A stretch of 32,488 bases of DNA from an uncultured Candidatus Bathyarchaeia archaeon (GCA_964634705.1 CAZWKG010000002.1:1-32488), one strand, 5' to 3'. Shown: positions 1-28,681, numbered from the stretch's first letter. The notes: a model not told the origin generated them from the sequence alone. Translations and numbers: made by a program.

Positions 1-806
1 TGGTTGTGGCCGCGGAGGTCGAGCTCCCAGCGGACCTCCCTTATGATGTCGGCGAAGCTGCCGCGCCTCGACCCCGGCGTGTCGAGCCTGACGGCCTGCA
101 GCCGCCGCCCGAGGGCTTCCGCGGCCATCACCGCCTCCTCCTTCTCGTCGGAGTAGGTGTCGACCAAAGCGACCCGGGGCACATCCGGCGGCATCACCTC
201 GTCGAAGGCCTTCCACGCCGCGACCTGGTCGCCGAACACGATCATCAGCGCATGGGGCATCGTCCCCATCGGCTCGTCCCCGATGGCCTCCGCACCCCGC
301 AGGCTCGAGACCCCGTCGAGGCCGCCGATGTACGCCGCCCTGTCGAGGGCCGGCGCCAGCGCTGGGTGCATCCTCCTAATCCCGAAGGCGACGACAGATT
401 TCTTCCCCGCTGCCATCTTCACTTGGGCGGCTCGGGTCGCCACTCCCGACACCTGGCAGATGAGGCCGAGGAGGGGGGTCTCCAGGGCGCAGAAGTCGTA
501 GTAGGCGCCCTCGATGCGTATGACCGGCTCGTGGACGCCCGCCGCGTCGACGGGATAGAATATGCTTCCCTCCGGTATCGAGTAGACGTCGACGGGGACG
601 CCCTCGAAGAGGTGCGCGACCTCCTCAACGCCGCATAGGATCCCCCACCCCTGGCCGTCAGGCAGCCTCCCCACCGTGACCTCGGCGACGACTCGGACGC
701 GATCCTTACCCTTAGCCTTCAGCACCTCCCTCGTCCTGACGAAGTAGATGTCGGTGGTCCGCCCCGCCTTGATCTCGTCGTCGGTGGCGATGTGGAAGGG
801 GTTCAC
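1..806 (-). CDS. pncB: nicotinate phosphoribosyltransferase, archaeal type (N-terminal part; 3' end beyond window start)
   Basis: Not in the ORF track because it has no stop inside the window. Own minus-strand translation from GTG(806): [116 protein letters not shown]. This fits the NAPRTase/QPRTase family as I remember it. The GTG overlaps the stop of the upstream nicotinamidase gene (GTGA). The listed + ORF 6..638 is its antisense shadow. Confidence 0.8.
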
Positions 807-12344: not shown

Positions 12345-13331
12345 ATGGTGAAGGTCTATCACGACCCGAACATAGATGAGAAGATCTTGGAAGGACGGCG
12401 GGTGGCCGTCATCGGCTACGGAAGCCAGGGTAGGGCCCAGAGCCTGAACATGCGCGACTCCGGCGTCGATGTCGTAGTCGGCCTGAGGCGCGGCAGCTCT
12501 TGGATGCGGGCAGAGGCCGACGGATTCGATGTCCAACCCATATCAGAGGCAGCTGCGATGGCCGACATCGTGGTGATGCTGATCCCGGACATGGCTCAGC
12601 CCAAGGTCTACAGAGAAAAAGTGGAGCCCCACCTCAAGGCTGGGAAGACGCTGCAGTTCGCCCACGGCTTCAACATCCACTACGGACAGATCGTTCCGCC
12701 GGATGATGTCGACGTCGTCATGGTGGCGCCCAAGTCCCCGGGCCCCGAGATGAGGAGGCAATACGAAGCCGGGTTCGGCGTCCCGGCCCTCGTCGCCGTC
12801 CATCAGAACCCATCGGGGAGGGCGAAGAAGACAGCTCTGGCGGTGGCGAAGGCCCTCGGCTCGGGGCGGGCGGGGGTCATCGAGACGACCTTCAAGGAGG
12901 AGACGGAGAGCGACCTCTTCGGGGAGCAAGCCGTCCTCTGCGGGGGTGTCGATCAGCTGATCCGCCGGGGGTTCAAGGTGCTGACGGAAAACGGCTACCC
13001 GCCCGACCTCGCCTACTTCGAGGTGCTGAACGAGCTGAAGCTCATCGTGGACCTCATCTACAGGCAGGGCATCAGCGGGATGTACCGAGCCGTCTCGGAC
13101 ACCGCGAAGTACGGCGGCATGGCCATCGGCCCCACAATAGTCGACGACCACGTCGAGGAGAACATGCGGAAGGCGCTGAAGGCGGTGCAGGACGGCAGCT
13201 TCGCCAGGCGGTGGATCGACGAATACGCCGGAGGCTCGAAAGAGTTCAGGCGGCTCATGGCGGACTGCGAGGCCCTAGATATCGAGAAGGTCGGCAAGGA
13301 AGTCAGACGCCTGTCGGGCCTGGAGAAATAG
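12345..13331 (+). CDS. ilvC: ketol-acid reductoisomerase
   Basis: 328 aa. It has [40 protein letters not shown] and EQAVLCGG. Confidence 0.95.
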
Positions 13332-13340
13332 CCTGGAAAA

Positions 13341-13357
13341 ATTATTTTATTTTTTCT
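13341..13357 (+). terminator. oligo-T terminator candidate after ilvC
   Basis: ATTATTTTATTTTTTCT begins 10 nt after the ilvC TAG. Archaeal termination typically uses T-runs. Confidence 0.45.
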
Positions 13358-13454
13358 ATCGTGGAACTGCCATCGTCTCCATTTACACCTTTTTAAAACT
13401 TAGTTTATGAGGATGGATTTACATATTTTCAAAAATTGCTTCAAGTCTTAATCC

Positions 13455-14562
13455 TTATGAGGTTGAACTGGTTGCAAGAGCTAAACCGCCCACATTTTCG
13501 ATGTTTTTAATCACACTTATGTAATTGTCCCTCTCACATAAGGCTATCATGCATCCACCACCACCGGAACCCGTGATTTTAGTTCCGTAAGCCCCCGCAT
13601 CAAGAGAGGCTTTTATTAATTTATCAAGTTTGGAAGGTGAAATTGAACAATCTCCAGATACATTTAAATATTTTTTCAAATAATATTGATTTTCATTCAT
13701 TAGCTCTCCCAATCGTTCACCATTTAATCTATGTTTGGAGAGTTCCGCCTTCGCCTCCTTCACTATCTTAGTGATCCCTTCAACTCCCTCCATAAAACGA
13801 ACTTCTTTATTGCGGAATCTTTTACCAAGCCAGCTAAGAATTCTTGGAGTATCCTTTGGTTGCTTTGTATCACCAACAATAAAAATTAAATCATTTTCAC
13901 GATCCAATTTTTCCACACTAATACGTTCATCACCGCAGTCAATAAATAATAAACCACCATATGGGGATGCATATGGATCCATCCGGCCACAATTAACCTC
14001 AAGTTCCATTCTCTCTGCTTGATACGCCGTCTCAGAACACATTTTAAAAAAATCATCCTTGTTCGCATATTGTTTTAATTCCTCGACATTACGTTCTTGA
14101 AATCTATGAAGTAGATCGGTGATTGCAGTGACAGTTACACACATCGCCTCGGAGGATGAAAGACCTTTTCCTACAGGAATATCGAAAGAAGACTGAGATT
14201 GAGAACTTATTTATTTCTGGATTTCATAGGTGTGAAATTGTAGAGTCATTCCCTGTAATGAATATGGCAGCTCAGCTTTTTTTCATAGCTTTAATTACAC
14301 CTCGAACATAACGAAAGTCTGAGGATATCTTAACGCTAAATGAATTTAAATTGAATTCATCAAAACTTGAAAAGGGTGGAAAAGAACGAGATTTGAAACT
14401 CATTTTATCGTTCAACTTCCCTTCGGGAAATACTCGCATATTAATGGTGGTCGTTATAACTTGATGTCCACACCAATCCATGTGATCACCAAAAAGACAG
14501 AGGCGCCCCAGAGCAGAACAAAATATAGTTCTCATGCAAATCATAATCTCGAGTGCAAACAT
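13455..14562 (-). pseudogene. GHMP-family sugar/mevalonate-type kinase, disrupted
   Basis: The N-terminal fragment ORF 14272..14562 has the GHMP motif-1 region (CSALGRLCLFGDHMDWCGHQV). The C-terminal ORF 13455..14144 has motif 3 (KITGSGGGGCMIAL). Motif 2 (IPVGKGLSSSEA, about 14145-14180) is in frame with the C-terminal ORF but upstream of its Met. The pieces are separated by a frame change at an A7 run (14277-14283) and an in-frame TAA (14211-14213). Confidence 0.65.
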
Positions 14563-14598
14563 TAATAATATATTCGATTATATCTTCATTTAACTTTC

Positions 14599-15468
14599 AT
14601 GTACCTGTCCTGGCATGGATATTGGCCTAAGAAAAAGGCGAATTTAAGGGCACCAATAGTAGAATCAACTAGGGAAATTTCAGTAGTGATCCCAGTAAGA
14701 GATAACCAGTCAGGTATCAATTTATTTTTTCGTCATTTCTTTCAAACCCATCTACCTGAAATGTATCCCTTAGAAATTATTATTATTGACAATTCTAATT
14801 CACCCATTCATCTTCCTAGGAAAGTTAAAAAATTTCCTTTAGACATCAAAGTATTACGCTGTGAGAAAATGGGACCTGCAAGTGCCCGTAACCTCGGCTG
14901 GCAGAAAGCAAAAGGGGAGTGGATTCTATTTACTGACAGCGACTGTATTCCATCTTCTCAATGGATAGAAGGTTACTTATCTTCCATGAATGGAGCTATT
15001 GGTTATGCGGGGAACGTGAAACCTCACGGTGACGATGTTATATCAAGATATTACGATAACCAAGATATTTTGATCCCATCAAGGTTTATCAATAATGGAA
15101 TTGCATATCCCGATTACGTGATTACCGCTAACACTTTACTTTGGAAAAGGGCTCTAGAGTTGATCGGGGGTTTTAATGAAACCATAAAAATTGCAGCTGG
15201 AGAGGATATAGATGTGGGATTCAGATTACGAGAACTCGGAGACCTAAGTTTTGCTCCACATTCATTAGTATATCATAATTTTGAAGATGGGCCGTTAGGT
15301 TTTATCAAAAGATTTAAGCGATATGGAAAAGGAAACCGCTTACTGTCCGAAATATATTCCTTAGATATGAGACCCCGAGATATTAAACCTAGAAATAGAA
15401 CCGTTCTAAATTCATTGTTAGCTTTAATTCAATACTATTGTCTTTTATGGGGGTATAATTTTTCGTGA
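14599..15468 (+). CDS. family 2 glycosyltransferase
   Basis: 289 aa. It has ISVVIPVRDN, IIIIDNSNSP, GPASARNLG, the DxD in ILFTDSDCIP, and AAGEDIDVGFRL. Confidence 0.85.
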   Translation: MYLSWHGYWPKKKANLRAPIVESTREISVVIPVRDNQSGINLFFRHFFQTHLPEMYPLEIIIIDNSNSPIHLPRKVKKFPLDIKVLRCEKMGPASARNLGWQKAKGEWILFTDSDCIPSSQWIEGYLSSMNGAIGYAGNVKPHGDDVISRYYDNQDILIPSRFINNGIAYPDYVITANTLLWKRALELIGGFNETIKIAAGEDIDVGFRLRELGDLSFAPHSLVYHNFEDGPLGFIKRFKRYGKGNRLLSEIYSLDMRPRDIKPRNRTVLNSLLALIQYYCLLWGYNFS

Positions 15469-15574
15469 AAAGAGATGTTTAATAAATTGGACCTATTATC
15501 TCTTTTGGATTCCCTTTTTCAGTAATACAAGCCGCAGTAATTGTTAAAATGGAGTCTTATATGAGGTAATTAAT

Positions 15575-16688: not shown

Positions 16689-17025
16689 TCACTCTTCTAT
16701 TTGTAGCCTTCTTTTCCCGTTGGTAGATTTCGGTGTGATGTTAATGAACTTGACAACAGGCTTGATGTGGGGTGTCCCTCCACCTTCAGACACGACTTCC
16801 ATAAGTCTGTCAGGATTCAAAGCCCTGATGGTTCCCACGATCTTCACGACCCGCGCGAAGAGGGGGTCAGGTATCAGGTTGGCAGACGCGCCGATGACTC
16901 CTACCTCCTTCGCAACCTTCGAATGTTCTTCAAATAATAGACTGAGCCAAGGTGGGCGTTCCGGGCGAAGAACCCCAGATACCGGTGGCTCGGGTACATA
17001 CGCTTAATTCATTCGTAGGCTACCA
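16689..17025 (-). pseudogene. decayed paralog of the DUF364 (Rossmann-like, putative metal chelation) gene at 22413..23183
   Basis: Own minus-strand translation: ..EEHSKVAKEVGVIGASANLIPDPLFARVVKIVGTIRALNPDRLMEVVSEGGGTPHIKPVVKFINITPK..*. It aligns with the intact protein ..AENARRVALVGPTVSCIPDPLFKKGVSFVGGVRIFDPDRAMQIIGEGGGTPQLRQAAKFVTY. The upstream part (GIWGSSPGTPTLAQSII, compare ITGSSLANGTVDRLL) is in another frame that ends at TGA 16930-16932. No usable start codon is present. Confidence 0.6.
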
Positions 17026-17194: not shown

Positions 17195-18076
17195 ATGAGC
17201 GGAGGGCAATCCGCAAACTCTGAGTTGCATAGATCTCAAGAAGCTCCCTTAAGAAACCGGCATGAGGAGATGAAACTCCTCAAAACGAGGATGGAAAAGA
17301 TACGGCACAAGATTGCCGTCATCAGCGGGAAAGGAGGCGTCGGCAAGACCCTAGTCACCGTCAACCTGGCCGTGGCCCTGGCAATGAGTGGGCGAAACGG
17401 CAGGGTCGGCATCCTCGATGCGGACATACACGGCCCCTGCGTCCCGAAGATGCTGGGATTGAAGGGGAACCGATTGGAGGTGGGGCCACCCGGCGTGTTT
17501 CCGGCTTTTGGCCTCTTAAACATCAAGGTGGTATCCATGGACTTCCTTCTCCCCAGCGACGACTCCCCCGTCATCTGGAGAGGACCATTGAAGATGGGCG
17601 CCATAAGGCAGTTCCTCTCCGAGATCGTCTGGGGCGACCTGGAGTACCTCCTCATAGATCTGCCGCCTGGGACCGGGGACGAGGCGCTCAGCGTTCTCCA
17701 GCTGCTGCCGGAGATGGACGGCGTCGTCATAGTCACCATCCCCAGCGAGGTCTCCCAGAACGTCGTAAAGAAGGCTGTCACCTTCGCCCGGAAGATGGAG
17801 GTGCCCGTCATAGGCGTCGTCGAGAACATGAGCGGCCTCGTCTGTCCCTTCTGTGGGGAGAGGATCGACGTGTTCAGCAGCGGTGGAGGAGAGAAGATAG
17901 CCATGGAGATGGGGATCCCCCTCCTGGGAGCCATCCCCCTAGACCCCAGCATCTCTAGGGACTCGGACGCAGGCATACCTTTCATAGTAGAGCACCGGGA
18001 TTCATTGGCCGCCAGGGCATTCGACTCCATAGTCGAGGAGATAGAGAGATTCGTGGAGAAGAGGGGAAGGGAATGA
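17195..18076 (+). CDS. mrp: Mrp/NBP35/ApbC-family Fe-S cluster carrier ATPase
   Basis: 293 aa. It has the deviant Walker A ISGKGGVGKT, plus ILDADIHGP, DLPPGTGDE and the cluster-bridging CPFC motif. A TATA-like GTTTTTAAAC lies at 17138-17147 and AGGTG lies 6 nt upstream of the ATG. Confidence 0.9.
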   Translation: MSGGQSANSELHRSQEAPLRNRHEEMKLLKTRMEKIRHKIAVISGKGGVGKTLVTVNLAVALAMSGRNGRVGILDADIHGPCVPKMLGLKGNRLEVGPPGVFPAFGLLNIKVVSMDFLLPSDDSPVIWRGPLKMGAIRQFLSEIVWGDLEYLLIDLPPGTGDEALSVLQLLPEMDGVVIVTIPSEVSQNVVKKAVTFARKMEVPVIGVVENMSGLVCPFCGERIDVFSSGGGEKIAMEMGIPLLGAIPLDPSISRDSDAGIPFIVEHRDSLAARAFDSIVEEIERFVEKRGRE

Positions 18077-18480
18077 AGCTGGCTGTATCATCCACAGGAA
18101 GAGGCCTGGAAAGCGCTGTTGACCCGCGTTTCGGCAGGTGCTCCTACTTCGTCATTGTAGACACAGAGACGATGGAGTTCGAGGCGGTGCCCAACTTGAG
18201 CGTAGGGGCTGCCCACGGCGCGGGGATTCAGGCCGCCCAGCTGGTCGCCTCAAAGGGAGTGGAGGCCGTTCTGACGGGTAACTTGGGCCCCAACGCGTTC
18301 AGCGCTCTCTCAGCAGCGGGCGTACAGGTGGTGACGGGGGCTGGGGGCACAGTCAGAGACACCCTGGAGCGGTTTAAACGGGGCGAACTCAGAGCGAGCA
18401 GCGGTCCCACCGTGGGCGGCCACTTTGGCTCGGGAGGCCGAGGGACGGGCCGGCGAAGGGGTGGACGACGCCGTATCTGA
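18073..18480 (+). CDS. NifX/NifB-C-terminal-like (Nitro_FeMo-Co family) protein with a Gly/Arg-rich tail
   Basis: 135 aa. DPRFGRCSYFVIVDTETMEF..GAGIQAAQLVASKGVEAVLTGNLGPNAF is the COG1433 signature. The C-terminal tail is GGHFGSGGRGTGRRRGGRRRI. Its ATG overlaps the mrp TGA (ATGA). Confidence 0.8.
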   Translation: MKLAVSSTGRGLESAVDPRFGRCSYFVIVDTETMEFEAVPNLSVGAAHGAGIQAAQLVASKGVEAVLTGNLGPNAFSALSAAGVQVVTGAGGTVRDTLERFKRGELRASSGPTVGGHFGSGGRGTGRRRGGRRRI

Positions 18481-18528
18481 GGCTCCTTTATACGTCTCAT
18501 CCACAAATAAAATTATGAGGCGGAGAAG

Positions 18529-18891
18529 ATGGTCAGGATCGTGATCCCGGTCGCTGATGGGAGTGGGGAGCTGCTCTCAGACCACTTCGGAAGAGCTCCC
18601 TACTTCGCCTGGTACAAGCTTGAGGGCAGCGAGATCGTCGACAGAGGCCTTGTACCTAATGACAGCGAGCACTTCGGTGGAACGGGTCTTCCTCCGGATC
18701 GCATCTTGCAGCTTAGGCCTGATGCGGTCATCACAGTCGGCATGGGATGGAGGGCCCTCAGCAGGTTTCAGAACGCCGGCGTGGCAGTGCTGCAGTCGGT
18801 GGGAAGGCAGGCTGAGGAGAACCTCGACAGGTTCCTCAGGGGAGAGCTCGAGGAGCTGACCGAAGGCTGCCTCCACGCCCGCCACCGCTAG
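18529..18891 (+). CDS. NifX/NifB-C-terminal-like (Nitro_FeMo-Co family) protein, second paralog
   Basis: 120 aa. It has LSDHFGRAPYFAWYKLEG...PDAVITVGMGWRALSRFQNAGVAV and ends in a Cys/His-containing EGCLHARHR. Confidence 0.78.
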   Translation: MVRIVIPVADGSGELLSDHFGRAPYFAWYKLEGSEIVDRGLVPNDSEHFGGTGLPPDRILQLRPDAVITVGMGWRALSRFQNAGVAVLQSVGRQAEENLDRFLRGELEELTEGCLHARHR

Positions 18892-18910
18892 ACGGTGTAA
18901 GGGGTCGCAT

Positions 18911-19747
18911 TTGAAGATCGCGATAGCGAGCGGCAAAGGTGGGACCGGAAAGACCTCGGTCGCCGTCAACCTGGCCCTATCGCTTGAGGTTGCCCAGGTC
19001 CTCGACTGCGATGTGGAGGAGCCCAACGCCCACATCTTGTTGAAGCCCGAGGTCGATAGCGTCTCCCCAGTCGAGGTTTTAGTCCCCCGCATCTTCAAGG
19101 ACAAGTGCGACTACTGCGGCGAGTGCGCCCGCTTCTGCCAGTATCACGCCCTCTTCGTCGCCGGTGAGACCGCCCTCGTCTTCCCAGAGCTCTGCCACAG
19201 CTGCGGCGGCTGCAGCCTAGTCTGCCCTAGAGACGCCATCGTCGAGGAGCCGAGGAAGATCGGCATGGTGTTCAAGGGTTCGGCCTGCAATGTTGAACTC
19301 GTCTACGGCGAGCTGGAGGTGGGCGAGCCGATGGCTGTCCCTGTAATCTCGGCCGTCAAGAGGCGAATGAATGAAGAGGGGAGGGTCATCTTGGACGCGC
19401 CGCCGGGAACTGCCTGCCCCGTGGTCGAAACGGTCCACGGAAGCGACTTCTGCCTGCTAGTGACGGAACCGACGCCCTTCGGCCTCCACGACCTGAAGGT
19501 CACGGTGGAGGTCGTGAGGCAGCTTAGGGTCCCCCTCGGTGTGGTCGTCAACTTCAGCGGAATAGGCGACCACGGCGTCTACGACTTCTGCGACGAGCAG
19601 GGCATCCCAATCCTGATGGAGATACCCTTCGACCGCGGTATAGCTGAACTCTACTCTAGGGGTGTCCCCTTCGTCGAGGCGATGCCAGAGTGGAAGCAGC
19701 GGTTCAGGGAGCTTGCAGACCGAATACGGGAGGAGGCTGGCGCATGA
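18911..19747 (+). CDS. MinD/ParA-superfamily P-loop ATPase with inserted 2x[4Fe-4S] ferredoxin module (COG1149 type), paralog 1
   Basis: 278 aa with a TTG start. It has the Walker A SGKGGTGKTS and LDCDVEEPNAHILL. The insert carries CDYCGECARFC and CHSCGGCSLVCP (two CxxCxxCxxxC motifs). Confidence 0.85.
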   Translation: MKIAIASGKGGTGKTSVAVNLALSLEVAQVLDCDVEEPNAHILLKPEVDSVSPVEVLVPRIFKDKCDYCGECARFCQYHALFVAGETALVFPELCHSCGGCSLVCPRDAIVEEPRKIGMVFKGSACNVELVYGELEVGEPMAVPVISAVKRRMNEEGRVILDAPPGTACPVVETVHGSDFCLLVTEPTPFGLHDLKVTVEVVRQLRVPLGVVVNFSGIGDHGVYDFCDEQGIPILMEIPFDRGIAELYSRGVPFVEAMPEWKQRFRELADRIREEAGA

Positions 19748-20631
19748 AGCAGATCACGATCCTCAGCGGCAAGGGCGGGACGGGAAAGACGACGGTGACG
19801 GCGTCCTTCGCCGCCCTGTCTGAGAATACGGTCTTCGCCGACTGCGATGTCGACGCCTCCAACCTCCATCTGCTGCTGAAGCCCAAGGTGGAGGAGACCA
19901 TGGAGTTCAAAGGCCTCAAACTCGCCGTAATCAACTCCGACAGGTGCACAAGATGCGGACTATGCGAGGAGAAGTGCCGCTTCAACGCGATCAAAGAATT
20001 CAAAGTAGACCCTATCAAGTGCGAGGGATGCGGCGTCTGCGTACGTGTCTGCCCTGTTGATGCCATCGACTTCTTGGAGCGGGTCTGCGGCCACGCCTAC
20101 ATCTCCCAGACCCGATACGGCCCTATGAGCCACGCCCGGCTGAAGCCGGGGATGGAGAACTCGGGAAAGCTCGTCACCCTAGTGAGGCAGAACGCGAAGA
20201 AGCTGGCAGAGGATGGAGATCACGATCTGGTGATCGTCGATGGCCCGCCGGGCATCGGGTGTCCCGTCATCGCTTCCCTCTCCGAGATCGACATCGGCTT
20301 CGTGGTGGTGGAGCCCACCCTTTCCGGCATCCACGACCTCAAGCGGGCGCTGATGCTACTAGAACACTTCAAGGTCGAGCCCCTGGTCTGCATAAACAAG
20401 CACGACCTGAATGAGGAGAACACGGGCGACATCGAGGAATTCTGCGCCGAGGAGGGTATAGATGTCGTCGGCAAAATTCCCTTCGACCCTGAGGTCACTA
20501 GGGCGATTGTCGCGGGCCTTCCAGTGGTCGAGTATGAACCGGGGTCTCCCGCATCGAAGGCGATTAAAGAGACATGGACGCTATTAAAGCAGCGCCTCAG
20601 GTTAAACGCCCGAGGATTGGTTGATCGATGA
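19744..20631 (+). CDS. MinD/ParA-superfamily P-loop ATPase with inserted 2x[4Fe-4S] ferredoxin module (COG1149 type), paralog 2
   Basis: The ORF track starts at 19690. I prefer ATG 19744 (MKQITILSGKGGTGKTT), which overlaps the upstream TGA (ATGA). It has ADCDVDASNLHLLL, CTRCGLCEEKC and CEGCGVCVRVCP. Confidence 0.85.
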   Translation: MKQITILSGKGGTGKTTVTASFAALSENTVFADCDVDASNLHLLLKPKVEETMEFKGLKLAVINSDRCTRCGLCEEKCRFNAIKEFKVDPIKCEGCGVCVRVCPVDAIDFLERVCGHAYISQTRYGPMSHARLKPGMENSGKLVTLVRQNAKKLAEDGDHDLVIVDGPPGIGCPVIASLSEIDIGFVVVEPTLSGIHDLKRALMLLEHFKVEPLVCINKHDLNEENTGDIEEFCAEEGIDVVGKIPFDPEVTRAIVAGLPVVEYEPGSPASKAIKETWTLLKQRLRLNARGLVDR

Positions 20632-21377
20632 GCCCCCTATTTTGGATAATCGGGGCCACATTTATCATCAGTCTGATAGCCTGGATCGGATCTCTAACCC
20701 TATTTCTGAAAGAAGAACTGATGGATAACATCCTGCAGGTCCTCGTGGCTTTATCCGCCGGAGGGTTGATGGGCGGGGCCTTCTTCCACCTACTGCCTGA
20801 AGCCATCTCTGAGGTGGGTTCCGCTTCACCTGCCACCTTAAACCTGTTCTCATACCTCATCGTAGGCTTCTGCACCTTCTTCATCTTGGAACAGTTCATC
20901 GCATGGTACCATGAACATTCTGGCGTACATCGGAGGAAACCGGTCTCCTACCTGGTCCTGATCTCCGATCTGGTGCACAACTTCATCGACGGACTGGTGA
21001 TCGCTGGTTCCTTCATGATCGGCTTCAACGTGGGAGTAGCCACATCCCTCGCCATAGCCTTGCACGAGATCCCCCAGGAGATAGGAGACTTCGGGGTCCT
21101 GGTCTACGGTGGCTTTCAAAAGCTTAGGGCCCTAATCTGGAACTACGCGTCAGCGGTCACGGTAATCCTCGGAGGGGTAGCAGGATATTATCTCTCCACC
21201 CTTGTAGGGGGCGCCGCCGTTCTTCTGCTACCCTTTGCGGCGGGAAACTTCATCTATATAGCCGCCTCTGATCTGATACCTGAAATAAAGCATGGAGAAA
21301 AAATCGGGAGAAACCTGGTGCATTTCTTCACATTCATGACTGGGATACTGCTCATGCTTGGAATAAGAATACTATGA
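20628..21377 (+). CDS. ZIP-family divalent metal permease (ZupT-like)
   Basis: 249 aa and polytopic. It has the HNFIDGLVIAGSF and ALHEIPQEIGDFGVL signature helices. Its ATG overlaps the stop of ATPase paralog 2 (ATGA). Confidence 0.85.
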   Translation: MSPLFWIIGATFIISLIAWIGSLTLFLKEELMDNILQVLVALSAGGLMGGAFFHLLPEAISEVGSASPATLNLFSYLIVGFCTFFILEQFIAWYHEHSGVHRRKPVSYLVLISDLVHNFIDGLVIAGSFMIGFNVGVATSLAIALHEIPQEIGDFGVLVYGGFQKLRALIWNYASAVTVILGGVAGYYLSTLVGGAAVLLLPFAAGNFIYIAASDLIPEIKHGEKIGRNLVHFFTFMTGILLMLGIRIL

Positions 21378-21425
21378 TGGAAAAAACTGCTATCATGAAT
21401 AAAGGAACCCGGGGGCACCATTAAT

Positions 21426-22280
21426 ATGAAGTTGAATAGCAGAAGCCTATTCGTTCTGGCTTTCTTCCTTATCGCAATCATCGTCTTGGCCATCTACCTC
21501 ATCAAATTTATCTATAAGCCAGCTGAAGGCCCTTTTAATGAAGAGCATCTTAAGCTTGGGAAATGTGATGGAACTCTAACCATTCTCTACGACAACAACC
21601 CCTACGACCCGAAGCTGAGAACTGCTTGGGGCTTCTCCTGCCTCGTCTCCCTAGACGGCGCCACCATCCTCTTCGACACCGGCGGAGACGGGAGGCTCCT
21701 GGCCGAGAACATGGCTAAGCTGGGAGTCGACATAAGAAGCATACAGGCAGTCGTCCTCTCCCACATCCACGGCGACCACACCGGAGGCCTAGACGCCGTA
21801 CTGGAAAAAAATAACAACGTAACGGTCTTTCTCCCAGCCTCCTTCACTTCTAACTTTAAAGCCGATGTGAAGAGGCATGGAAGCGCGGTGGTGGAGGTGT
21901 ATGAGGCGGTCAAGGTCCATGATTGCGTTGCGACGACAGGCGTCCTAGGAAGAGCCATCGAGGAACAGTCTCTCATGGTGGAGACGAGCCGAGGGTTGGT
22001 GCTGGTCACCGGCTGCGCCCATCCGGGAATTGTGAACATCGTAAGAAGGGCGAAGGAACTCACCGGCGAAGAAATACACCTCGTCGTCGGAGGATTCCAC
22101 CTCGCCTCTAAATCAGAGGAGGAGATAAACCGGATCATCACCCAGATGAAGGAGTTGGGTGTTAGGAAGGTGGCTCCCTGCCACTGCAGCGGCGACCCGG
22201 CGAGGAGGCTATTCAAAGAAGCCTTCATAGCCAACTATATAGAAGCCGGAGTTGGCAAGGTAATACAGATCGTAGGCTGA
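21426..22280 (+). CDS. N-terminally membrane-anchored MBL-fold metallohydrolase (COG1237-like)
   Basis: 284 aa. It has one N-terminal TM helix (LFVLAFFLIAIIVLAIYLI) after K/R residues, the HxHxDH motif SHIHGDHTGG, and TGCAHPG. This family is often auto-annotated after the MJ0301 methanopterin enzyme. Confidence 0.78.
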   Translation: MKLNSRSLFVLAFFLIAIIVLAIYLIKFIYKPAEGPFNEEHLKLGKCDGTLTILYDNNPYDPKLRTAWGFSCLVSLDGATILFDTGGDGRLLAENMAKLGVDIRSIQAVVLSHIHGDHTGGLDAVLEKNNNVTVFLPASFTSNFKADVKRHGSAVVEVYEAVKVHDCVATTGVLGRAIEEQSLMVETSRGLVLVTGCAHPGIVNIVRRAKELTGEEIHLVVGGFHLASKSEEEINRIITQMKELGVRKVAPCHCSGDPARRLFKEAFIANYIEAGVGKVIQIVG

Positions 22281-22412
22281 GCATATGGATACTTCGAGTC
22301 ATTCTCTGAAGAGATGGTCTATGTTTCCTCTGCCCTACAAGAACTTTAAGGCGGTTCTTTGCTACCTAGGTTTGAGGTGCCTCATGGGAGGTGAAGACAG
22401 ATAACCACGGTA

Positions 22413-23183
22413 GTGAAAGAAGTGATAGACCTTCTCATCCAAAACGTTCCCGACATGGAGGACATCCTAATCGATAGGGTGTGTTTAGGGTTGGGATACA
22501 CAGGCGTTAAGCTGGAAGGAGGGCAGATGGGGGTGTGCCACAGCCTCCTCTCCGAGATGGCGCCGGGATGCTGCGAGATAATCGATCAGGCAGGGACGCT
22601 TGCCGGTAGACCTGCTCCAGAACTCCTTAGCCTGGCTGGTTCTTGGGACCTTGGGGAACGTGTGATCGGAGTGGCCACGATGAACGCGCTCTCACAGATC
22701 GTCTTCGAAACTCACCCTGATAGATACGCCTGTGAGGAGAGGAACCTCATCGACGTTCTCGAAGTAGGTCACGAGGAAGTTGTGGCTTTAGTTGGGCTCA
22801 TCAAACCTTTCATCCCCATTTTAAGGTCCAAGGCAAAGCAGTTGTATGTTTTAGAGCGTGGGTTCCGACGCGAAAAGGGGATACTTCCGGATACCGCCTG
22901 CGAGGAGGTGATCCCAGAGGCGGATGTGGTGGTCATCACGGGGAGCTCCCTCGCTAACGGGACCGTAGATCGCCTCTTAGTGCTCGCAGAGAACGCGAGA
23001 AGGGTGGCCTTGGTTGGCCCAACCGTCAGCTGCATCCCTGACCCACTATTCAAAAAGGGAGTCAGCTTCGTCGGAGGAGTCCGAATTTTTGATCCAGATA
23101 GAGCTATGCAGATCATAGGGGAGGGTGGTGGCACGCCTCAACTTAGACAAGCCGCCAAGTTTGTAACTTACAGGGCTAAATAA
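22413..23183 (+). CDS. DUF4213/DUF364 protein (putative heavy-metal chelation, enolase-N-like plus Rossmann-like domains)
   Basis: 256 aa with a GTG start. It has VCLGLGYTGVKLEGGQMGVCHS in the N-terminal domain and ADVVVITGSSLANGT...GGGTP in the C-terminal domain, as I recall for these Pfam families. Confidence 0.72.
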   Translation: MKEVIDLLIQNVPDMEDILIDRVCLGLGYTGVKLEGGQMGVCHSLLSEMAPGCCEIIDQAGTLAGRPAPELLSLAGSWDLGERVIGVATMNALSQIVFETHPDRYACEERNLIDVLEVGHEEVVALVGLIKPFIPILRSKAKQLYVLERGFRREKGILPDTACEEVIPEADVVVITGSSLANGTVDRLLVLAENARRVALVGPTVSCIPDPLFKKGVSFVGGVRIFDPDRAMQIIGEGGGTPQLRQAAKFVTYRAK

Positions 23184-23774: not shown

Positions 23775-24464
23775 TTAGGTGGGAGCTATTTGTGTTTTAA
23801 GGTGCTTTTTGGCCTTGATGAGGATTACTCCGACGCCCCGCCTGATTGGGACAAGCTGGTATTCCTCCTCAGGCTCATCGGGAGAGGCAGTTAGCGTGCC
23901 CACCGACTCCACAGGATCGAAGCCTGCTTTCTTCAGTAAGGAGGAAACCTCGCTAAGCGTGTATAGCTTTGCTCTGCTAAAGATTTGGTTTCCTTTTTCT
24001 GCGAGTTTGGAATAGTGCTCTCCCCATGAGCTATCCCGGTTGATTAGCAGAATCACTAGAGTCGCATCTTCCCTGAGGATTTTGTTTACTGAGTATAGCG
24101 ACTTTAACGGTTCTGGCATGAACTCCAATACTGTGACCATGTAGGCAAAGTCTAGGCTTCCACGTCTTATAGGTGAGGCTTCAGCCATCGCTATGATCGA
24201 CGGTAAATTCCTCTTTTTCGCTTCTTTGAGCATGCCTTGGGAGGGGTCTAAGCAGACTACACTTCTCTCATCCGTTGATAGATATTTGGCGAAGATGCCC
24301 GTGCCAGATCCTATATCGATACCTAACCCTGAATGGGGTAACAGGGCCTCTAGCCCAACGAGTTCTGAACGGAAAGCGTAGACACCGACGGGCTTACCGT
24401 ACCATTCATCATAGGATGCCGCTGCATTTTCGAAGATTTCTATGATTTCACGCGTACTTTTCAT
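23775..24464 (-). CDS. class I SAM-dependent methyltransferase
   Basis: 229 aa. It has motif I GLGIDIGSGTGIFAKYL and a post-I acidic residue (VCLDPS). It is a Methyltransf_11-like protein. Confidence 0.8.
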   Translation of the reverse strand: MKSTREIIEIFENAAASYDEWYGKPVGVYAFRSELVGLEALLPHSGLGIDIGSGTGIFAKYLSTDERSVVCLDPSQGMLKEAKKRNLPSIIAMAEASPIRRGSLDFAYMVTVLEFMPEPLKSLYSVNKILREDATLVILLINRDSSWGEHYSKLAEKGNQIFSRAKLYTLSEVSSLLKKAGFDPVESVGTLTASPDEPEEEYQLVPIRRGVGVILIKAKKHLKTQIAPT

Positions 24465-25336: not shown

Positions 25337-26542
25337 GTGAGAATGAACGCGAAGAAGATTTTGATATTGGGAGCAGGCGCTGCAGGCTCCATCGTTGCTA
25401 ACAAGATAGCCAGGGAGCTTCGGAGGGATATAGCCGAGGGGAAGCTGGAGGTTACGGTGCTGGACAAGGACGACCTGAATACGAACCAGGGTGGGTTCAC
25501 CTTCATCCCCTTCGGCCTCTACGCCCCTGAAGACATAACGAGGCCGAGGAGCAAGCTCATCAGCCCCAGGGTCAAGAACGCGTTCGGTGCAGACGGCGAG
25601 GTGAGCCACGTAGACCTCGGGGATCGGGAGGTGACAACCAAAAGCGGGAGGAACTACTCTTACGATTACCTCCTCATCTCCACTGGTTGTAGACTCGAGC
25701 CGGAGGCAGTCTCAGGCCTATCTGGAGACCTAAACACTTTCTATACGCTGGAGGGAGCCATGAAGCTTAGAGAGGCCATTAAGACATTCAACGAAGGGCG
25801 TATCGTCGTACTGACACCGGAGATGCCCATCGCCTGTCCAGGAGCTCCAAGCAAGTTCACCATCCTCCTCGACGACTACCTTAGGCATGTGAGAGGCGAG
25901 GATGTCCGGGAGGATGTGGAAATCTCCTTCCTCTGGCCTATAGGCAACATTGGCCCAGCCGTGTACAACGAGAAGATAGTGGAAGGCTTCGCCGAGAGGG
26001 AAATCGAGTACAGGAAGGAGTTCAAGGTTCAGGAGGTGGACTCCGACGAGAAGGAGGTCGTCTCAGACGACGGAGACAGGGTCGGATACGATCTCCTGGT
26101 CTCGATACCCCCTCACAGGGGGATAAAGGCCCTTCAGGAGTCTGGTATCACGGACGAGAACGGGTGGGTGCCCACGGACATCCATACGCTGCAGTACTCC
26201 AAGTCGCCGTCTGAGCGCTACGACGAGGTCTACGCCGTGGGAGACGCTGGCTCGGCCAAGATCAACAAGATGGGCATCACAGCCCACTTCCAGGCGCTGA
26301 CGACGGGCCAGAATCTGATAAACGACTATCTCGGAAACGGGGTCAGGGTGATATACAACGGGGAGCAGGGGTGCCCCATCGTGGAATCCTCGTACACCCC
26401 TGCTACGGATGGGAGGGCGTACATGGTGACCTGGACCTACGGGAATCCGCCAGCCCCCTTCAACTCGACCAAGCTGGGCTGGCTCATCTACAGGATGTAC
26501 TACTACATCTACTGGGATACCACGATGAAGGCCATCATGTAG
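25337..26542 (+). CDS. FAD-dependent pyridine nucleotide-disulfide oxidoreductase, sulfide:quinone oxidoreductase-like
   Basis: 401 aa. It has KILILGAGAAGSIVANKIA (FAD Rossmann motif), IACPGAPSKF, YAVGDAG and EQGCPIVES. The Cys positions resemble SQR redox cysteines. The start may be ATG 25343. Confidence 0.72.
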   Translation: MRMNAKKILILGAGAAGSIVANKIARELRRDIAEGKLEVTVLDKDDLNTNQGGFTFIPFGLYAPEDITRPRSKLISPRVKNAFGADGEVSHVDLGDREVTTKSGRNYSYDYLLISTGCRLEPEAVSGLSGDLNTFYTLEGAMKLREAIKTFNEGRIVVLTPEMPIACPGAPSKFTILLDDYLRHVRGEDVREDVEISFLWPIGNIGPAVYNEKIVEGFAEREIEYRKEFKVQEVDSDEKEVVSDDGDRVGYDLLVSIPPHRGIKALQESGITDENGWVPTDIHTLQYSKSPSERYDEVYAVGDAGSAKINKMGITAHFQALTTGQNLINDYLGNGVRVIYNGEQGCPIVESSYTPATDGRAYMVTWTYGNPPAPFNSTKLGWLIYRMYYYIYWDTTMKAIM

Positions 26543-26926
26543 GTGAAGGAGATGTCGAAAATGGAAGCTAATAGGAGTAACCCCGAGGCGACGACAATAA
26601 ACTTGGAGCCCCAGACCGTGGAGTCGCTGGTGGACCTCGTAGACTCCGTCGAGTTCCTGAGGAGCTTCTTCAACGACCAGGTGGTCCGCGACGTTTCGTG
26701 TATCGGGTCGTCCGTGCTGAAGCTGGTCAACGCCGTCTCCAACACGGATCTGGTCGACATCTTGGAGAGAGGCCTCCAGGACCCCCAGCTGGACAGGGCC
26801 CTCATCGATCCCCCGAAGATAGGCTTCTGGGGGCTCCTATCCGCTCTAAGGAACGAAGACATGCGGAAGGGGATGGGCATCGTCATCGAACTCTTAAAAG
26901 CCATTGGCAGAGCATCCGGCCAATAA
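26543..26926 (+). CDS. DUF1641 protein
   Basis: 127 aa. ..LVDLVDSVEFLRSFFNDQVVRDV..KLVNAVSNTDLVDILERGLQDP..GFWGLLSALRNEDMRKGMGIVIELLKAIG is typical DUF1641, a family usually found next to such flavoproteins. The start may be ATG 26552, preceded by AGGTGA. Confidence 0.7.
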   Translation: MKEMSKMEANRSNPEATTINLEPQTVESLVDLVDSVEFLRSFFNDQVVRDVSCIGSSVLKLVNAVSNTDLVDILERGLQDPQLDRALIDPPKIGFWGLLSALRNEDMRKGMGIVIELLKAIGRASGQ

Positions 26927-27160
26927 CAAGATCATCATGGATCTCAAAAAACTCGAATATCCCCTTTTTCACCGGTTCCCATAGATAGTCCGCGCACAAA
27001 ACGTATGGCGGCCCTTATGGTTTGGAATGTGAAGGCATTCGGCCAGTCACAGAGTCTGGGAGATAGCATATGGTTAGATCCTTCGCCAAAAGGTTTTAGC
27101 GCGTCGTCTTTATCTTGGTTTTCGAGAGGTTGACATGAACTGGACATCGAATTAATCAAA

Positions 27161-27889
27161 GTGGGGTTTACGGCTAGTCTCATCGCCGGTCTTGCCACCG
27201 GCGCTGGAGCCTTACCTGTCTTGTTTTTCGCTCGGATCTCAGATAGGATCCTCGACGTGATGCTCGGCTTCGCCGCGGGCGTCATGCTCGCTGCCTCCTC
27301 CTTCAGCCTCCTGGTCCCCGCCATTGAACTGGGTGGGGTTTGGGCTGCCATCGTAAGCCTCGGAATCGGTGGTTTGGCTCTCCATCTGATTGACCGTTTT
27401 ATCCCGCACAGGCATCTTATTTCAGGCTCCGAAGGGCCGTCATCAAGATTGGCACGCATATGGCTTTTCGTCACAGCCATAACCATCCACAATTTTCCTG
27501 AGGGCGTGGCTGTAGGGGTGAGCTTCGGCGGCGGGAACATCGCAAGAGGCCTCATTGTAGCTACGGCAATCGGGCTGCAGAACATGCCGGAGGGCCTGGC
27601 GGTCGCCTTTCCCTTGCTACGAGAGGGTTATAGTCGGAGCAGGGCCTTGTGGTACGCGACGCTCACGGGCTTAGTAGAACCTATAGGTGGTTTCCTTGGA
27701 ATCACTTTGGTCTCACTGTCCCGATCTATTCTGCCTTGGGGCCTTGCTTTCGCAGCCGGTGCCATGATATTTGTTGTGAGCGATGAGATGATTCCAGAGA
27801 GTCATAGAAAGGGATTTGAACGCGAAGCTACGTTCGGTTTGATGATCGGCTTCATAATTATGATGCTCCTAGATAATTTAATTGCTTAA
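27161..27889 (+). CDS. ZIP-family divalent metal permease (GufA/ZupT-like), second copy
   Basis: 242 aa with a GTG start. It has ITIHNFPEGVAVGVSF and GLQNMPEGLAVAFPL. Confidence 0.85.
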   Translation: MGFTASLIAGLATGAGALPVLFFARISDRILDVMLGFAAGVMLAASSFSLLVPAIELGGVWAAIVSLGIGGLALHLIDRFIPHRHLISGSEGPSSRLARIWLFVTAITIHNFPEGVAVGVSFGGGNIARGLIVATAIGLQNMPEGLAVAFPLLREGYSRSRALWYATLTGLVEPIGGFLGITLVSLSRSILPWGLAFAAGAMIFVVSDEMIPESHRKGFEREATFGLMIGFIIMMLLDNLIA

Positions 27890-28174: not shown

Positions 28175-28189
28175 TTATCTTTGATTCGA

Positions 28190-28681
28190 ATGGTCAAAGT
28201 AGGCATAATGATATGCGACCGTAACAGGACGTGTACCGGCAACAAGTGCTTCATGTCCGTAGGTGAAAGAGATGGAGCCTTTGCCCAATATCCTAAGGAT
28301 GAGCCTATAGAAGTTGTTGGCTTCATAGCGTGTGGTGGCTGCCCCGGCGAAAGGCTGGAATTTAGCCCAGCGGACATGAAGAAGTACGGCGCCGAGGTGA
28401 TCCATCTAGCGACGTGCTTCTTGGCTGGGTATCCTGCATGCCCCTACATCGGGGACTTTATCCAGTACATCGAGAAGGTTGTGGGACTACCTGTAGTGAT
28501 TGGCACCCACCCAATGCCCCAGAACTACATCGACGCCCATGAAAAAGCAGGGGATTGGGAGAGGGACGATGTCCGGAAATATCTAAAGGGCCTTGTTGAG
28601 GACAGGGAAGCCTCTCAGAAATACGACTCGACTAGGCTCGACTTCCTGAGAAAAGTTCCGAGCCTAGGTTACGCAGATTAG
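28190..28681 (+). CDS. CGGC-domain cysteine-rich protein
   Basis: The ORF track starts at TTG 28181; I prefer ATG 28190 (MVKVGIMICDRNRTCTGNKCF). It has the central IACGGCPGERL motif and a later LATCFLAGYPACPY. Confidence 0.72.
   Translation: MVKVGIMICDRNRTCTGNKCFMSVGERDGAFAQYPKDEPIEVVGFIACGGCPGERLEFSPADMKKYGAEVIHLATCFLAGYPACPYIGDFIQYIEKVVGLPVVIGTHPMPQNYIDAHEKAGDWERDDVRKYLKGLVEDREASQKYDSTRLDFLRKVPSLGYAD

Follow-up and report, generated by a model that had tools for sequence, protein, structure and literature searches.

What do eight neighbouring genes on one strand of an uncultured Candidatus Bathyarchaeia archaeon do together, and is their combination a new one? The genes occupy positions 17,195 to 23,183 of a 32,488-nt stretch of DNA (GCA_964634705.1, CAZWKG010000002.1:1-32488; the window, meaning the whole stretch that was analysed). 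They encode an Mrp-type ATPase, two NifX-like proteins (NifX1 and NifX2), two MinD-type ATPases with inserted ferredoxin domains (ATPase 1 and ATPase 2), a ZIP permease, a protein of the metallo-beta-lactamase (MBL) fold and a DUF4213/DUF364 protein (Table 1). An initial reading, made from the sequence alone (the sequence-only reading), took the block for an uncharacterised system of metallocluster assembly, with a Ni-containing carbon monoxide dehydrogenase (Ni-CODH) or a [NiFe] hydrogenase encoded downstream as candidate client. We conclude that the first five genes (17195-20631) are probably the Bathyarchaeia version of the cluster encoding the Orange Protein (ORP) complex of Desulfovibrio, and that the ZIP, MBL and DUF364 genes lie outside this core. 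Given the matches to MrpORP, to structure 2wfb and to Orp3/Orp4, the system had already been described; what is new here is an archaeal, unfused, tail-bearing member of it, not an unrecognised system.

The gene set itself was confirmed. All eight genes were present with the extents and strand proposed, every domain call exceeded its Pfam gathering score in profile hidden Markov model searches, and the translations contained each of the quoted motifs: CPFC, DPRFGRCSYFVIVD, SDHFGRAPYFAWY, SGKGGTGKT (twice), DCDVEEPNAH, DCDVDASNLH and HIHGDHTGG. ATGA start/stop overlaps at 18073, 19744 and 20628 join mrp to NifX1, ATPase 1 to ATPase 2 and ATPase 2 to ZIP; in the first two pairs, the downstream start overlaps the upstream stop by 4 nt. 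The two ATPases (33% identical, E = 2e-39) and the two NifX-like proteins (34% identical, E = 1e-7) are paralogues, as had been proposed.

Probable kinship of the five core genes with the Orange Protein complex

The ORP complex was purified from Desulfovibrio vulgaris Hildenborough and contains five proteins, Orp3, Orp4, Orp5, Orp8 and Orp9 (PMC6345978). Orp3 and Orp4 are paralogues with two [4Fe-4S] ferredoxin motifs each, Orp5 is a homologue of a small [2Fe-2S]-binding protein, and Orp8 is an Orange Protein homologue with a non-covalent [S2MoS2CuS2MoS2] cluster (PMC6345978). In Orp9, or MrpORP, an Mrp/NBP35 domain continues into a NifX-like "Di-Nase" domain as one fusion protein; His-tagged Orp3 brings down Orp4 and Orp8, and holo-MrpORP transfers Fe-S clusters to apo Orp3-Orp4-Orp8 in vitro (PMC6345978). 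With a Mo-Cu-S cluster on the Orp8-type protein and Orp3/Orp4 loaded by MrpORP, it no longer holds that neither a cofactor nor a client has been assigned to these families. An archaeal origin of the system has been suggested in the literature, and genes AF2378-AF2383 of Archaeoglobus fulgidus, highly expressed and located beside a thiosulfate reductase, were previously equated with the orp cluster (two transcriptome papers). We found no later functional assignment for ORP in the literature searched. An existing assignment therefore accounts for the cluster in part, in that the complex itself is known.

The Mrp protein was matched best among NCBIfam models by NF041136 (MrpORP), with 342 bits over model positions 1-250, followed by ApbC with 213 bits. 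The protein ends at 293 aa and has no counterpart to the NifX-like domain at the C-terminal end of the model, which explains why it stays under the cut-off of 450 set for NF041136. The missing part of the model is matched instead by NifX1 and NifX2 (the latter at 36 bits over 265-365). Mrp thus corresponds to the P-loop domain of MrpORP, unfused to the NifX-like domain, and with its deviant Walker A motif (SGKGGVGKT) and C217-P-F-C220 it has the features of Mrp/NBP35/ApbC carriers.

The best solved relative of NifX1 was the Orange Protein of Desulfovibrio gigas itself (2wfb, E = 1e-24, residues 2-113), followed by TM1290 and MTH1175 (E = 5e-20). NifX2 was matched best in the PDB by TM1816 (1t3v/1o13) and PH0822. 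The Di-Nase domain has the motifs CxHFGHCE and CDH (PMC6345978); NifX2 has DHFGRAP and no cysteine pair, and so is without the cysteines of CxHFGHCE. NifX2 occupies the place that the Mrp-fused Di-Nase domain holds in Desulfovibrio; the NifX domains of the six Mrp-NifX fusions described below score similarly low, at 12-27 bits, against NifX1 and NifX2.

NifX1 ends in a 21-residue tail, GGHFGSGGRGTGRRRGGRRRI, with an isoelectric point (pI) of 12 and 76% Gly+Arg. Similar Gly/Arg tails were found in Thorarchaeota and at some bacterial loci, and other ORP-type proteins carry a Gly/Met-rich tail with a coiled coil or a fused second NifX domain; the measure used misses tails in close relatives that align to NifX1 through their C-terminus. 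Three Desulfobacterales-type metagenome-assembled genomes (MAGs) encode an ORP-type NifX domain joined by a coiled-coil linker to a second NifX domain (L029:1155-2159, L038:7626-8516 and L041:387-1232), the latter bearing HFGH and PPPHEPG, two motifs of the Di-Nase domain in MrpORP. Many further ORP-type proteins were seen with a Gly/Met/Arg-rich C-terminal tail and a coiled coil.

The ATPase pair fits the published account of Orp3/Orp4, with which it was compared by description: the two are MinD-like paralogues with two [4Fe-4S] motifs each. Both combine a deviant Walker A motif (SGKGGTGKT) with an inserted 2x[4Fe-4S] ferredoxin domain, the eight cysteines of which were kept in 99-100% of 72 ATPase1-type and 81 ATPase2-type sequences. 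All of these sequences (100% of 72 + 81) also have a further cysteine, in the motif D-x-P-P-G-x-x-C (C169 in ATPase 1, C173 in ATPase 2). It lies seven residues past the Walker B aspartate and is the sole invariant cysteine outside the insert in each subunit. In an AlphaFold2 model of ATPase 2 computed from a 45-sequence alignment (predicted local distance difference test, pLDDT, 95.8; predicted template modelling score, pTM, 0.89), this cysteine is predicted to cap a helix.

A Foldseek search with this model ranked archaeal MinD, FleN and FlhG highest, with NifH, ATPase-type HypB and Soj behind them. The MinD match was 1hyq (E = 3e-14), and the ferredoxin insert was present in no solved structure among the fold matches of ATPase 2. 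Sequence scores were lower: NCBIfam minD models gave 87 bits against a cut-off of 202, and NifH matches of the ATPases in NCBIfam and Pfam fell below cut-off. The spacing of the extra cysteine matches that of Asp125 and Cys132 in NifH of Azotobacter vinelandii, where Cys132 is a ligand of the bridging cluster; this putative equivalence was not confirmed by alignment. A local hhalign run against NifH aligned the C-terminus only, and the global alignment was clearly in error across the insert.

Both ATPases have the signature lysine of this Walker A variant, a mark of ATP-dependent sandwich dimers among SIMIBI ATPases. At 70 of the 73 surveyed loci with room for it, the gene immediately upstream of the ATPase2-type gene is of the ATPase1 type. 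All 32 of the 32 long representatives (about 580-710 aa; P0121-P0186) consist of an ATPase1-type N-terminal half and an ATPase2-type C-terminal half, and therefore give Rosetta-stone support for an obligate heterodimer. That ATPase 1 and ATPase 2 form one is thus supported by gene order, the ATGA overlap, natural fusions and the published co-purification of Orp3, Orp4 and Orp8. The earliest possible start of ATPase 2 is GTG 19690; ATG 19744 is backed by homologues and by gene calls on related contigs.

Conservation of the core and of its neighbours

We searched 1.84 billion representative proteins with ATPase 2, which yielded 781 matches at E <= 1e-30. Of the relatives, 44 diverse single-unit sequences were aligned, and 80 loci were taken from GTDB species genomes, these being the best 80 of at least 445 confirmed matches. 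Bathyarchaeia, methanogens, Thermoplasmata, Thorarchaeota, Chloroflexota, Desulfobacterota, Clostridia, Planctomycetota and others were represented; L006 and L077 are loci from Methanosarcinales and Methanohalophilus. Open reading frames (ORFs) were defined as stop-to-stop segments, and the eight window proteins were scored against all of them.

At the fully flanked loci (at least 6 kb on either side, n = 35), ATPase 1 was found in 35/35, NifX-like proteins in 34/35 (at 25 loci as two copies or more) and Mrp in 20/35. The conserved unit is the ATPase heterodimer with NifX-fold proteins, joined by Mrp in somewhat over half of the loci. The remaining three genes were found less often: MBL was present at 12 of the 35 loci, DUF364 at five and ZIP at one. 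For the core, the idea of an Fe-S carrier, NifX carriers and a redox ATPase pair is reasonable, and the five core genes can rightly be seen as a metalloprotein unit that is conserved and inherited together; this does not extend to all eight genes.

The Mrp-NifX fusion typical of MrpORP was found in just 6 of 40 cluster-linked Mrp genes, five of the six from Desulfobacterota-type loci, and the unfused Mrp seen in the window is therefore the common arrangement. Of 41 Mrp homologues linked to such clusters, 78% keep the CxxC motif. As in D. vulgaris, the same genes are accompanied by a sigma54 activator and a fusion of Mrp with NifX at the Desulfobacterota loci surveyed.

Neighbouring ORFs were also clustered in an unbiased way, without the window proteins as queries, and the cluster representatives were annotated with Pfam. 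The recurrent same-strand neighbours among the 80 loci were a small Gly/Arg- and Cys-rich protein of ~74 aa (30 loci), a Zn-ribbon protein (29), an IscU/NifU_N scaffold (25), a radical SAM protein (18), DUF134 (17), an ARMT1-like protein (12), Fur (11), a CGGC-domain protein (9-10), a sigma54 activator that matches OrpR (9, at bacterial loci) and a methyltransferase like that at 23775-24464 in the window (7-8). The ~74-aa protein (for example L054:165-389) has a Gly/Arg-rich N-terminal half and a C-terminal half with C-x-C-x2-C ... C-x4-C-x2-C. It had no Pfam match at E <= 0.001 and no tblastn match in the window. It is probably an Orp5-type small Fe-S protein of orp operons or a relative of DUF5320, a domain that is fused to NifX in related contigs.

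No cell-division genes were found among the recurrent neighbours at the 80 loci. The spectrum of IscU-like, Fur and small Cys proteins favours iron-sulfur chemistry over cell division; for molybdenum or tungsten (Mo/W), it offers indirect hints. An Rfam search of the 31 bacterial loci detected no riboswitch controlling an ORP-type cluster. The two aptamers found lie elsewhere: a molybdenum/tungsten cofactor (Moco/Wco) riboswitch at L042:9081-9221, 8 kb from the cluster and not upstream of it, and a cobalamin riboswitch at L021:7515-7702, several kb downstream.

Related Bathyarchaeia contigs, chosen by homologues of ATPase 2 or MBL at 58-100% identity, gave a closer view of the three tail genes. 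The core order Mrp-NifX-NifX-ATPase1-ATPase2 was constant in all contigs with all five genes on the stretch (the stretches of L083 and L084 begin inside the core). The exact eight-gene block was found on L001 and L090, which are near-identical, and on no other contig; L090 also repeats the full downstream region up to the CGGC-domain gene, cdhA and the hydrogenase. Elsewhere the tail genes stay close to the core, and their order and strand change. On L091 the core is followed by MBL, with FeoAB further along and neither ZIP nor DUF364. L088 has core-MBL-DUF364 with ZIP 3.5 kb off, and on L089 MBL is convergent to the core, with DUF364 and ZIP beyond it on the core strand. L087, from a different species (ATPase 2 78% identical), has MBL upstream and DUF364 right behind ATPase 2, and at a distance of about 5 kb there is a NifX-CGGC-CdhA operon. 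L083 has ZIP and a radical SAM gene nearby, and L085 lacks all three tail genes. Of about 10 Bathyarchaeia contexts, 4 have ZIP near the core, and its position differs among them.

A relic upstream of mrp belongs to the same picture. It comprises the last 62 residues of a second DUF364 gene, divergent from mrp, in an otherwise empty 580-bp gap, and therefore the neighbourhood has been rearranged in this lineage too. Beyond Bathyarchaeia, the tightest linkage of DUF364 and ORP genes that we observed was in a Methanocellaceae MAG (L009:5124-9035), where DUF364 lies between the ATPase1 and ATPase2 genes and MBL 0.8 kb downstream.

The repeated presence of MBL and DUF364 near the core, joined in Bathyarchaeia by a metal importer, argues for a functional or regulatory link. 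ZIP, MBL and DUF364 have no fixed place in the operon and probably make up a loosely linked module for metal uptake or small molecules. In this lineage the module has come to adjoin the end of the core, with ZIP translationally coupled to ATPase 2, and ZIP is in essence specific to the lineage. The DUF364 gene may have its own promoter, given the 133-nt gap that precedes it; its start is either 22413 or 22422.

The ZIP protein has the metal-site motifs HNFIDG and HEIPQE (HNxxD/E, HExPxE) and is therefore most safely read as a divalent-cation importer; with 55 bits it stays below the ZupT equivalog cut-off of 252. The MBL protein has HIHGDH (HxHxDH) and matched PDB 7dck at E = 5e-58 over residues 48-282, with TM1679 and 2p4z also matching. 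Its homologues carry an automated JGI name, derived from COG1237, for an enzyme of the methanopterin pathway; we found no established enzymatic activity for the 7dck/TM1679 subgroup in the literature, and literature searches on 7dck gave nothing relevant. The membrane anchor ascribed to it by the sequence-only reading is a putative one, a single hydrophobic stretch near the N-terminus (aa 8-26) that recurs in one strong homologue (L032) and is missing from most. MBL matches numbered 19 within 5 kb of the cluster (634 kb scanned) and 0 beyond 5 kb (421 kb scanned), and MBL is thus a recurrent but facultative neighbour of ORP clusters.

DUF364 is an occasional one. The protein has a two-domain architecture, enolase-N-like and Rossmann-like (3npg, E = 6e-17; 3l5o, E = 5e-15). 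Members of this family are predicted to act in "heavy-metal chelation" and are neighbours of Fe, W, V and Mo transporters; the first activity measured for one is the cyclisation of methylated S-adenosylmethionine (SAM) to methyl-azetidine-carboxylate. The position of DUF364 beside a metal transporter here fits the family pattern.

Possible functions of the core

Several points weigh against assigning the core to the ORP system. Kinship to DVU2103/2104/2108/2109 rests on published descriptions and models, not on direct sequence comparison. A homologue of Orp5 and the Mrp-NifX fusion are absent at this locus, and the nearest solved folds of ATPase 2 are positioning and regulatory ATPases (MinD, FleN). 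The authors who described ORP proposed a role in cell division, which is still given in the literature as its putative physiological role. The surveyed loci, with ATPase 2 homologues 49-63% identical to that of the window, are biased to closer relatives, and the correspondence of the invariant cysteine with NifH Cys132 is one of motif spacing, the profile alignment being unreliable through the insert. With these points taken into account, we still regard the ORP assignment as likely.

For the core as an ORP system, we propose the following mechanism. A Mrp dimer, bridged by a [4Fe-4S] cluster bound to the CPFC motif, would pass clusters on to the ferredoxin inserts of both ATPases, as happens in vitro with the Desulfovibrio proteins and as would be expected here by homology. 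The ATPase 1/ATPase 2 heterodimer, with four [4Fe-4S] clusters and an invariant switch-II cysteine in each subunit, would open and close under the control of ATP through the signature lysine. It would bind the Orange-Protein-type NifX-fold protein with its non-covalent metal-sulfide cluster; by analogy with Orp8 in the D. vulgaris complex, this partner would be NifX1, and the second NifX-fold protein is probably bound too. We infer that ATP hydrolysis and low-potential electrons would in this way be coupled to building, reducing or handing over metal-sulfur species in strict anaerobes. A bolder proposal is that the core is an ancient, anaerobe-specific, NifH-like heterodimeric machine that uses ATP and four low-potential [4Fe-4S] clusters to build or insert a complex metal-sulfur cofactor carried by the NifX-fold proteins, with MBL, DUF364, CGGC and radical SAM proteins as unrecognised accessories. 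The Ni-Fe-S centre of CdhA would be a possible client in this lineage, in view of the CGGC-CdhA operon 5 kb off and the NifX-CGGC-CdhA operon of L087. We consider this proposal very improbable.

Other functions have to be weighed against iron-sulfur chemistry. In the first, the core would serve the Mo/W enzymes of sulfidic habitats by handling thiomolybdate or thiotungstate, the sulfide species of these metals, with NifX1 as a Mo/W-S carrier and DUF364 and MBL acting in Mo/W or pterin chemistry. The Orange Protein binds [S2MoS2CuS2MoS2] and related Mo-M-S clusters, but its Mo-Cu cluster may form adventitiously. DUF364 genes lie in operons for molybdate, tungstate and vanadium transporters, including modABC of Methanococcus maripaludis, an operon that is cofit with nifH, and the COG1237 family bears a pterin-related annotation; these COG1237 and DUF364 annotations are, however, automated or predicted, and the sole measured DUF364 activity is the cyclisation of a SAM derivative. 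The A. fulgidus homologues adjoin a molybdopterin thiosulfate reductase and are co-induced with it. At the locus studied here, the transporter is a ZIP protein (divalent cations) and not an oxyanion transporter. In the clustering of neighbours at the 80 loci, no Mo/W transporter or Moco biosynthesis family reached five loci, compared with 25 for the IscU-like scaffold, and the one Moco riboswitch of the 31 bacterial loci is far from its cluster. We regard this function as unlikely.

The tail of NifX1 suggests a second possibility, a thioferrate store for Fe-S storage and delivery that is loaded or mobilised by the ATPase pair and Mrp. In IssA of Pyrococcus furiosus and the "IssX" clades, cationic Gly-rich tails are proposed to bind anionic thioferrate, and the NifX1 tail shares the cationic Gly/Arg composition. 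MTH1175, one of the close solved relatives of NifX1, belongs to the IssA clade according to the IssA authors, IscU-like and Fur genes recur nearby, and FeoAB follows the cluster on L091. The tail is nevertheless short (21 aa, against 70 in IssA) and has one aromatic residue (Phe) where that of IssA has 14. Most surveyed ORP-type proteins are tailless or have Gly/Met tails with a coiled coil, subject to the tails missed by the measure, and we found no link between IssA and MinD-ferredoxin ATPases in the literature. An IssA-like role is distinctly unlikely.

A third possibility keeps to the role proposed by the original authors, a MinD-like system of positioning or cell division in which the Fe-S clusters serve merely as redox sensors. 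That MinD, FleN and FlhG are the top structural matches of ATPase 2 agrees with it, as does the response of orp expression to redox potential. Genes for MinC and MinE are absent both from the window and from the recurrent neighbours of the survey, where IscU-like, Fur, radical SAM, Cys-rich, CGGC and MBL proteins are found instead, and the near-universal pairing with a NifX-fold carrier (34/35) speaks against such a role. The C-terminal helices of the ATPases have negative mean hydrophobicity, and a hydrophobic-moment analysis gave no convincing MinD-like amphipathic membrane-targeting helix, which is a weak test. Furthermore, a Min system would not be expected in archaea of the Bathyarchaeia type. 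A positioning role is very unlikely.

The least likely explanation, and a very improbable one, is that of the sequence-only reading, in which all eight genes form one dedicated assembly line for the Ni-CODH (CdhA) or the [NiFe] hydrogenase: a single strand, short gaps, the ATGA overlaps including that of ATPase 2 and ZIP, the repeat of the block with CGGC-CdhA-hydrogenase on L090, the NifX-CGGC-CdhA operon of L087, CGGC-domain genes near 10 of the 80 ORP clusters and the persistence of MBL, DUF364 and ZIP near the core in several rearranged Bathyarchaeia contigs speak for it, but CdhA was found within 10 kb at 0 of 80 loci and a hydrogenase large subunit as 1 weak match in 80, ZIP and DUF364 are rare at fully flanked loci and missing even from the relatives L085 and L091, five unrelated opposite-strand genes separate the block from cdhA, and the MBL protein, with its N-terminal hydrophobic segment, may not be cytoplasmic. 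The proposed clients thus have no support outside one Bathyarchaeia sub-lineage, within which CGGC-CdhA may be linked to the ORP core.

The ORP assignment matters because this complex is widespread in strict anaerobes and reported to be highly expressed in one archaeon, and its role has been open for more than a decade since its discovery. Our survey sharpens the question by defining a conserved unit, a neighbourhood of Fe-S and metal genes and not division genes, and an invariant switch-II cysteine. The natural ATPase1-ATPase2 fusions are convenient targets for structural work on the heterodimer. Should the core prove to be an ATP-driven machine for metal-sulfur clusters, it would fill a gap in the picture of how anaerobic archaea and bacteria make their metallocofactors.

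Surroundings of the block and comparison with known systems

Table 1. Genes of the block, followed by other features of the window. Positions are counted from the first letter of the window.
Feature	Coordinates	Strand	Evidence or remarks
Mrp/NBP35-type Fe-S carrier ATPase	17195-18076	+	Pfam ParA/NUBPL 314 bits (PF10609); CPFC = C217/C220
NifX-like 1 (NifX1), Orange Protein (Orp8) type	18073-18480	+	Pfam Nitro_FeMo-Co 95 bits
NifX-like 2 (NifX2), more divergent NifX fold	18529-18891	+	Pfam Nitro_FeMo-Co 53 bits
ATPase 1, MinD fold, Orp3/Orp4 type	18911-19747	+	Pfam CbiA/ParA and two Fer4
ATPase 2, MinD fold, paralogue of ATPase 1	19744-20631	+	Pfam CbiA/ParA and two Fer4
ZIP-family divalent-metal permease (putative)	20628-21377	+	Pfam Zip 141 bits
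MBL-fold protein, COG1237 family	21426-22280	+	Pfam Lactamase_B 49 bits
DUF4213/DUF364 protein	22413-23183	+	Pfam 73 (DUF4213) and 137 (DUF364) bits
DUF364 relic	16728-16913	-	tblastn with the DUF364 protein: 42% identity, residues 195-256, E = 7e-15
Low-GC stretch	13001-15500		GC 0.37-0.45, against 0.5-0.65 elsewhere
GHMP-kinase-like gene	13455-14144		
Family-2 glycosyltransferase	14599-15468		
Class I methyltransferase	23775-24464	-	top NCBIfam match "DVU_1556 family", below cut-off
SQR-like flavoprotein	within 25337-27889		NF049943 (type III sulfide:quinone reductase) 290 bits, below cut-off
Second ZIP paralogue	27161-27889		27.5% identical to the first ZIP
CGGC-domain protein	28181-28681	+	7 nt upstream of cdhA
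CdhA	28688-31036	+	TIGR00314, 1171 bits
[NiFe] hydrogenase large subunit, group-4 type	after cdhA, + strand (region to 32252)		both CxxC motifs kept

According to Pfam searches of the larger ORFs, the remainder of the window holds housekeeping genes (ribosomal proteins, pantothenate/CoA, ilv). Homologues from named sources assign the organism to Bathyarchaeia. Downstream of the block follow genes for a thiamine-binding protein, a methyltransferase, a racemase, a flavoprotein similar to sulfide:quinone reductase (SQR) with DUF1641, a second ZIP, a CGGC-domain protein, CdhA and the hydrogenase. The presence of the CODH and the hydrogenase was thus as the sequence-only reading had it, and so was the absence of nitrogenase (nif), cooC and hyp genes, none of which was detected among all larger ORFs of the window. 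The SQR-like/DUF1641 pair adjoins the ORP core on L090 and L091 too. The methyltransferase also recurs in Bathyarchaeia relatives, and the recurrent copies are accompanied by a thiamine-binding-protein-like gene and an Asp/Glu racemase. The low-GC stretch, which covers most of the GHMP-kinase-like gene and the glycosyltransferase, may have been horizontally acquired.

No tRNA was detected by a scan of the window, and no riboswitch by Rfam at the gathering threshold. Counts from a sigma70 promoter and terminator scan were at the level of shuffled sequence, under a bacterial model that is inapplicable to an archaeon, and inspection by eye of the gaps between genes revealed no convincing TATA boxes.

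We compared the locus with known systems, beginning with the Desulfovibrio ORP cluster (orp3-4-5 / orpR / orp7-8-9; DVU2103-2109). Both have a CxxC-containing ATPase of the Mrp/NBP35 type, a NifX-fold protein of the Orange Protein type, a pair of MinD-type paralogues with two [4Fe-4S] motifs each and an additional NifX-like (Di-Nase) module, and both are restricted to anaerobes. Here, however, Mrp is unfused and followed by two stand-alone NifX-like genes, NifX2 is without the cysteines of the Di-Nase CxHFGHCE motif, and the small [2Fe-2S] protein (Orp5 homologue) is missing. The genes form a single predicted operon on one strand, whereas those of Desulfovibrio form two divergent ones controlled by sigma54 and OrpR. 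Sigma54 control is not expected in archaea; no enhancer-binding protein is encoded in the window, and the nine surveyed loci with sigma54 activators are all bacterial. The Gly/Arg tail of NifX1 and the appended ZIP, MBL and DUF364 genes are further differences. A. fulgidus AF2378-AF2383 offers a similar archaeal set of NifX and CbiA/MinD-type genes, known from the two transcriptome papers only, with thiosulfate reductase beside it in place of ZIP, MBL and DUF364.

IssA of P. furiosus resembles NifX1 in combining a NifX/NifB-type (IPR003731) domain with a cationic glycine-rich C-terminal tail. It differs in that the tail of NifX1 is much shorter, with its single Phe as the only aromatic residue and no prolines, and in that the best solved match of NifX1 is ORP and not a relative of IssA.

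The SIMIBI proteins NifH/BchL, CooC and HypB provide the last comparison. NifH-type proteins are homodimers with one bridging cluster, whereas the ATPases here would form a heterodimer, have a fold nearest to MinD and carry their clusters in the inserted 2x[4Fe-4S] ferredoxin domain. NifH has two interface cysteines (Cys97 and Cys132 in A. vinelandii), and each subunit here has one candidate. Unlike for NifH, CooC and HypB, no nitrogenase-like, CODH or hydrogenase partner is conserved near ORP-type clusters. The likenesses to NifH/BchL, CooC and HypB are the deviant Walker A motif with its signature lysine, the ATP-dependent dimer and Fe-S or metal sites coupled to the switch regions. With NifH, the ATPases share a cysteine seven residues after the Walker B aspartate, in motif spacing only, and their partnership with NifX-fold carriers recalls the NifH/NifEN/NifX system.

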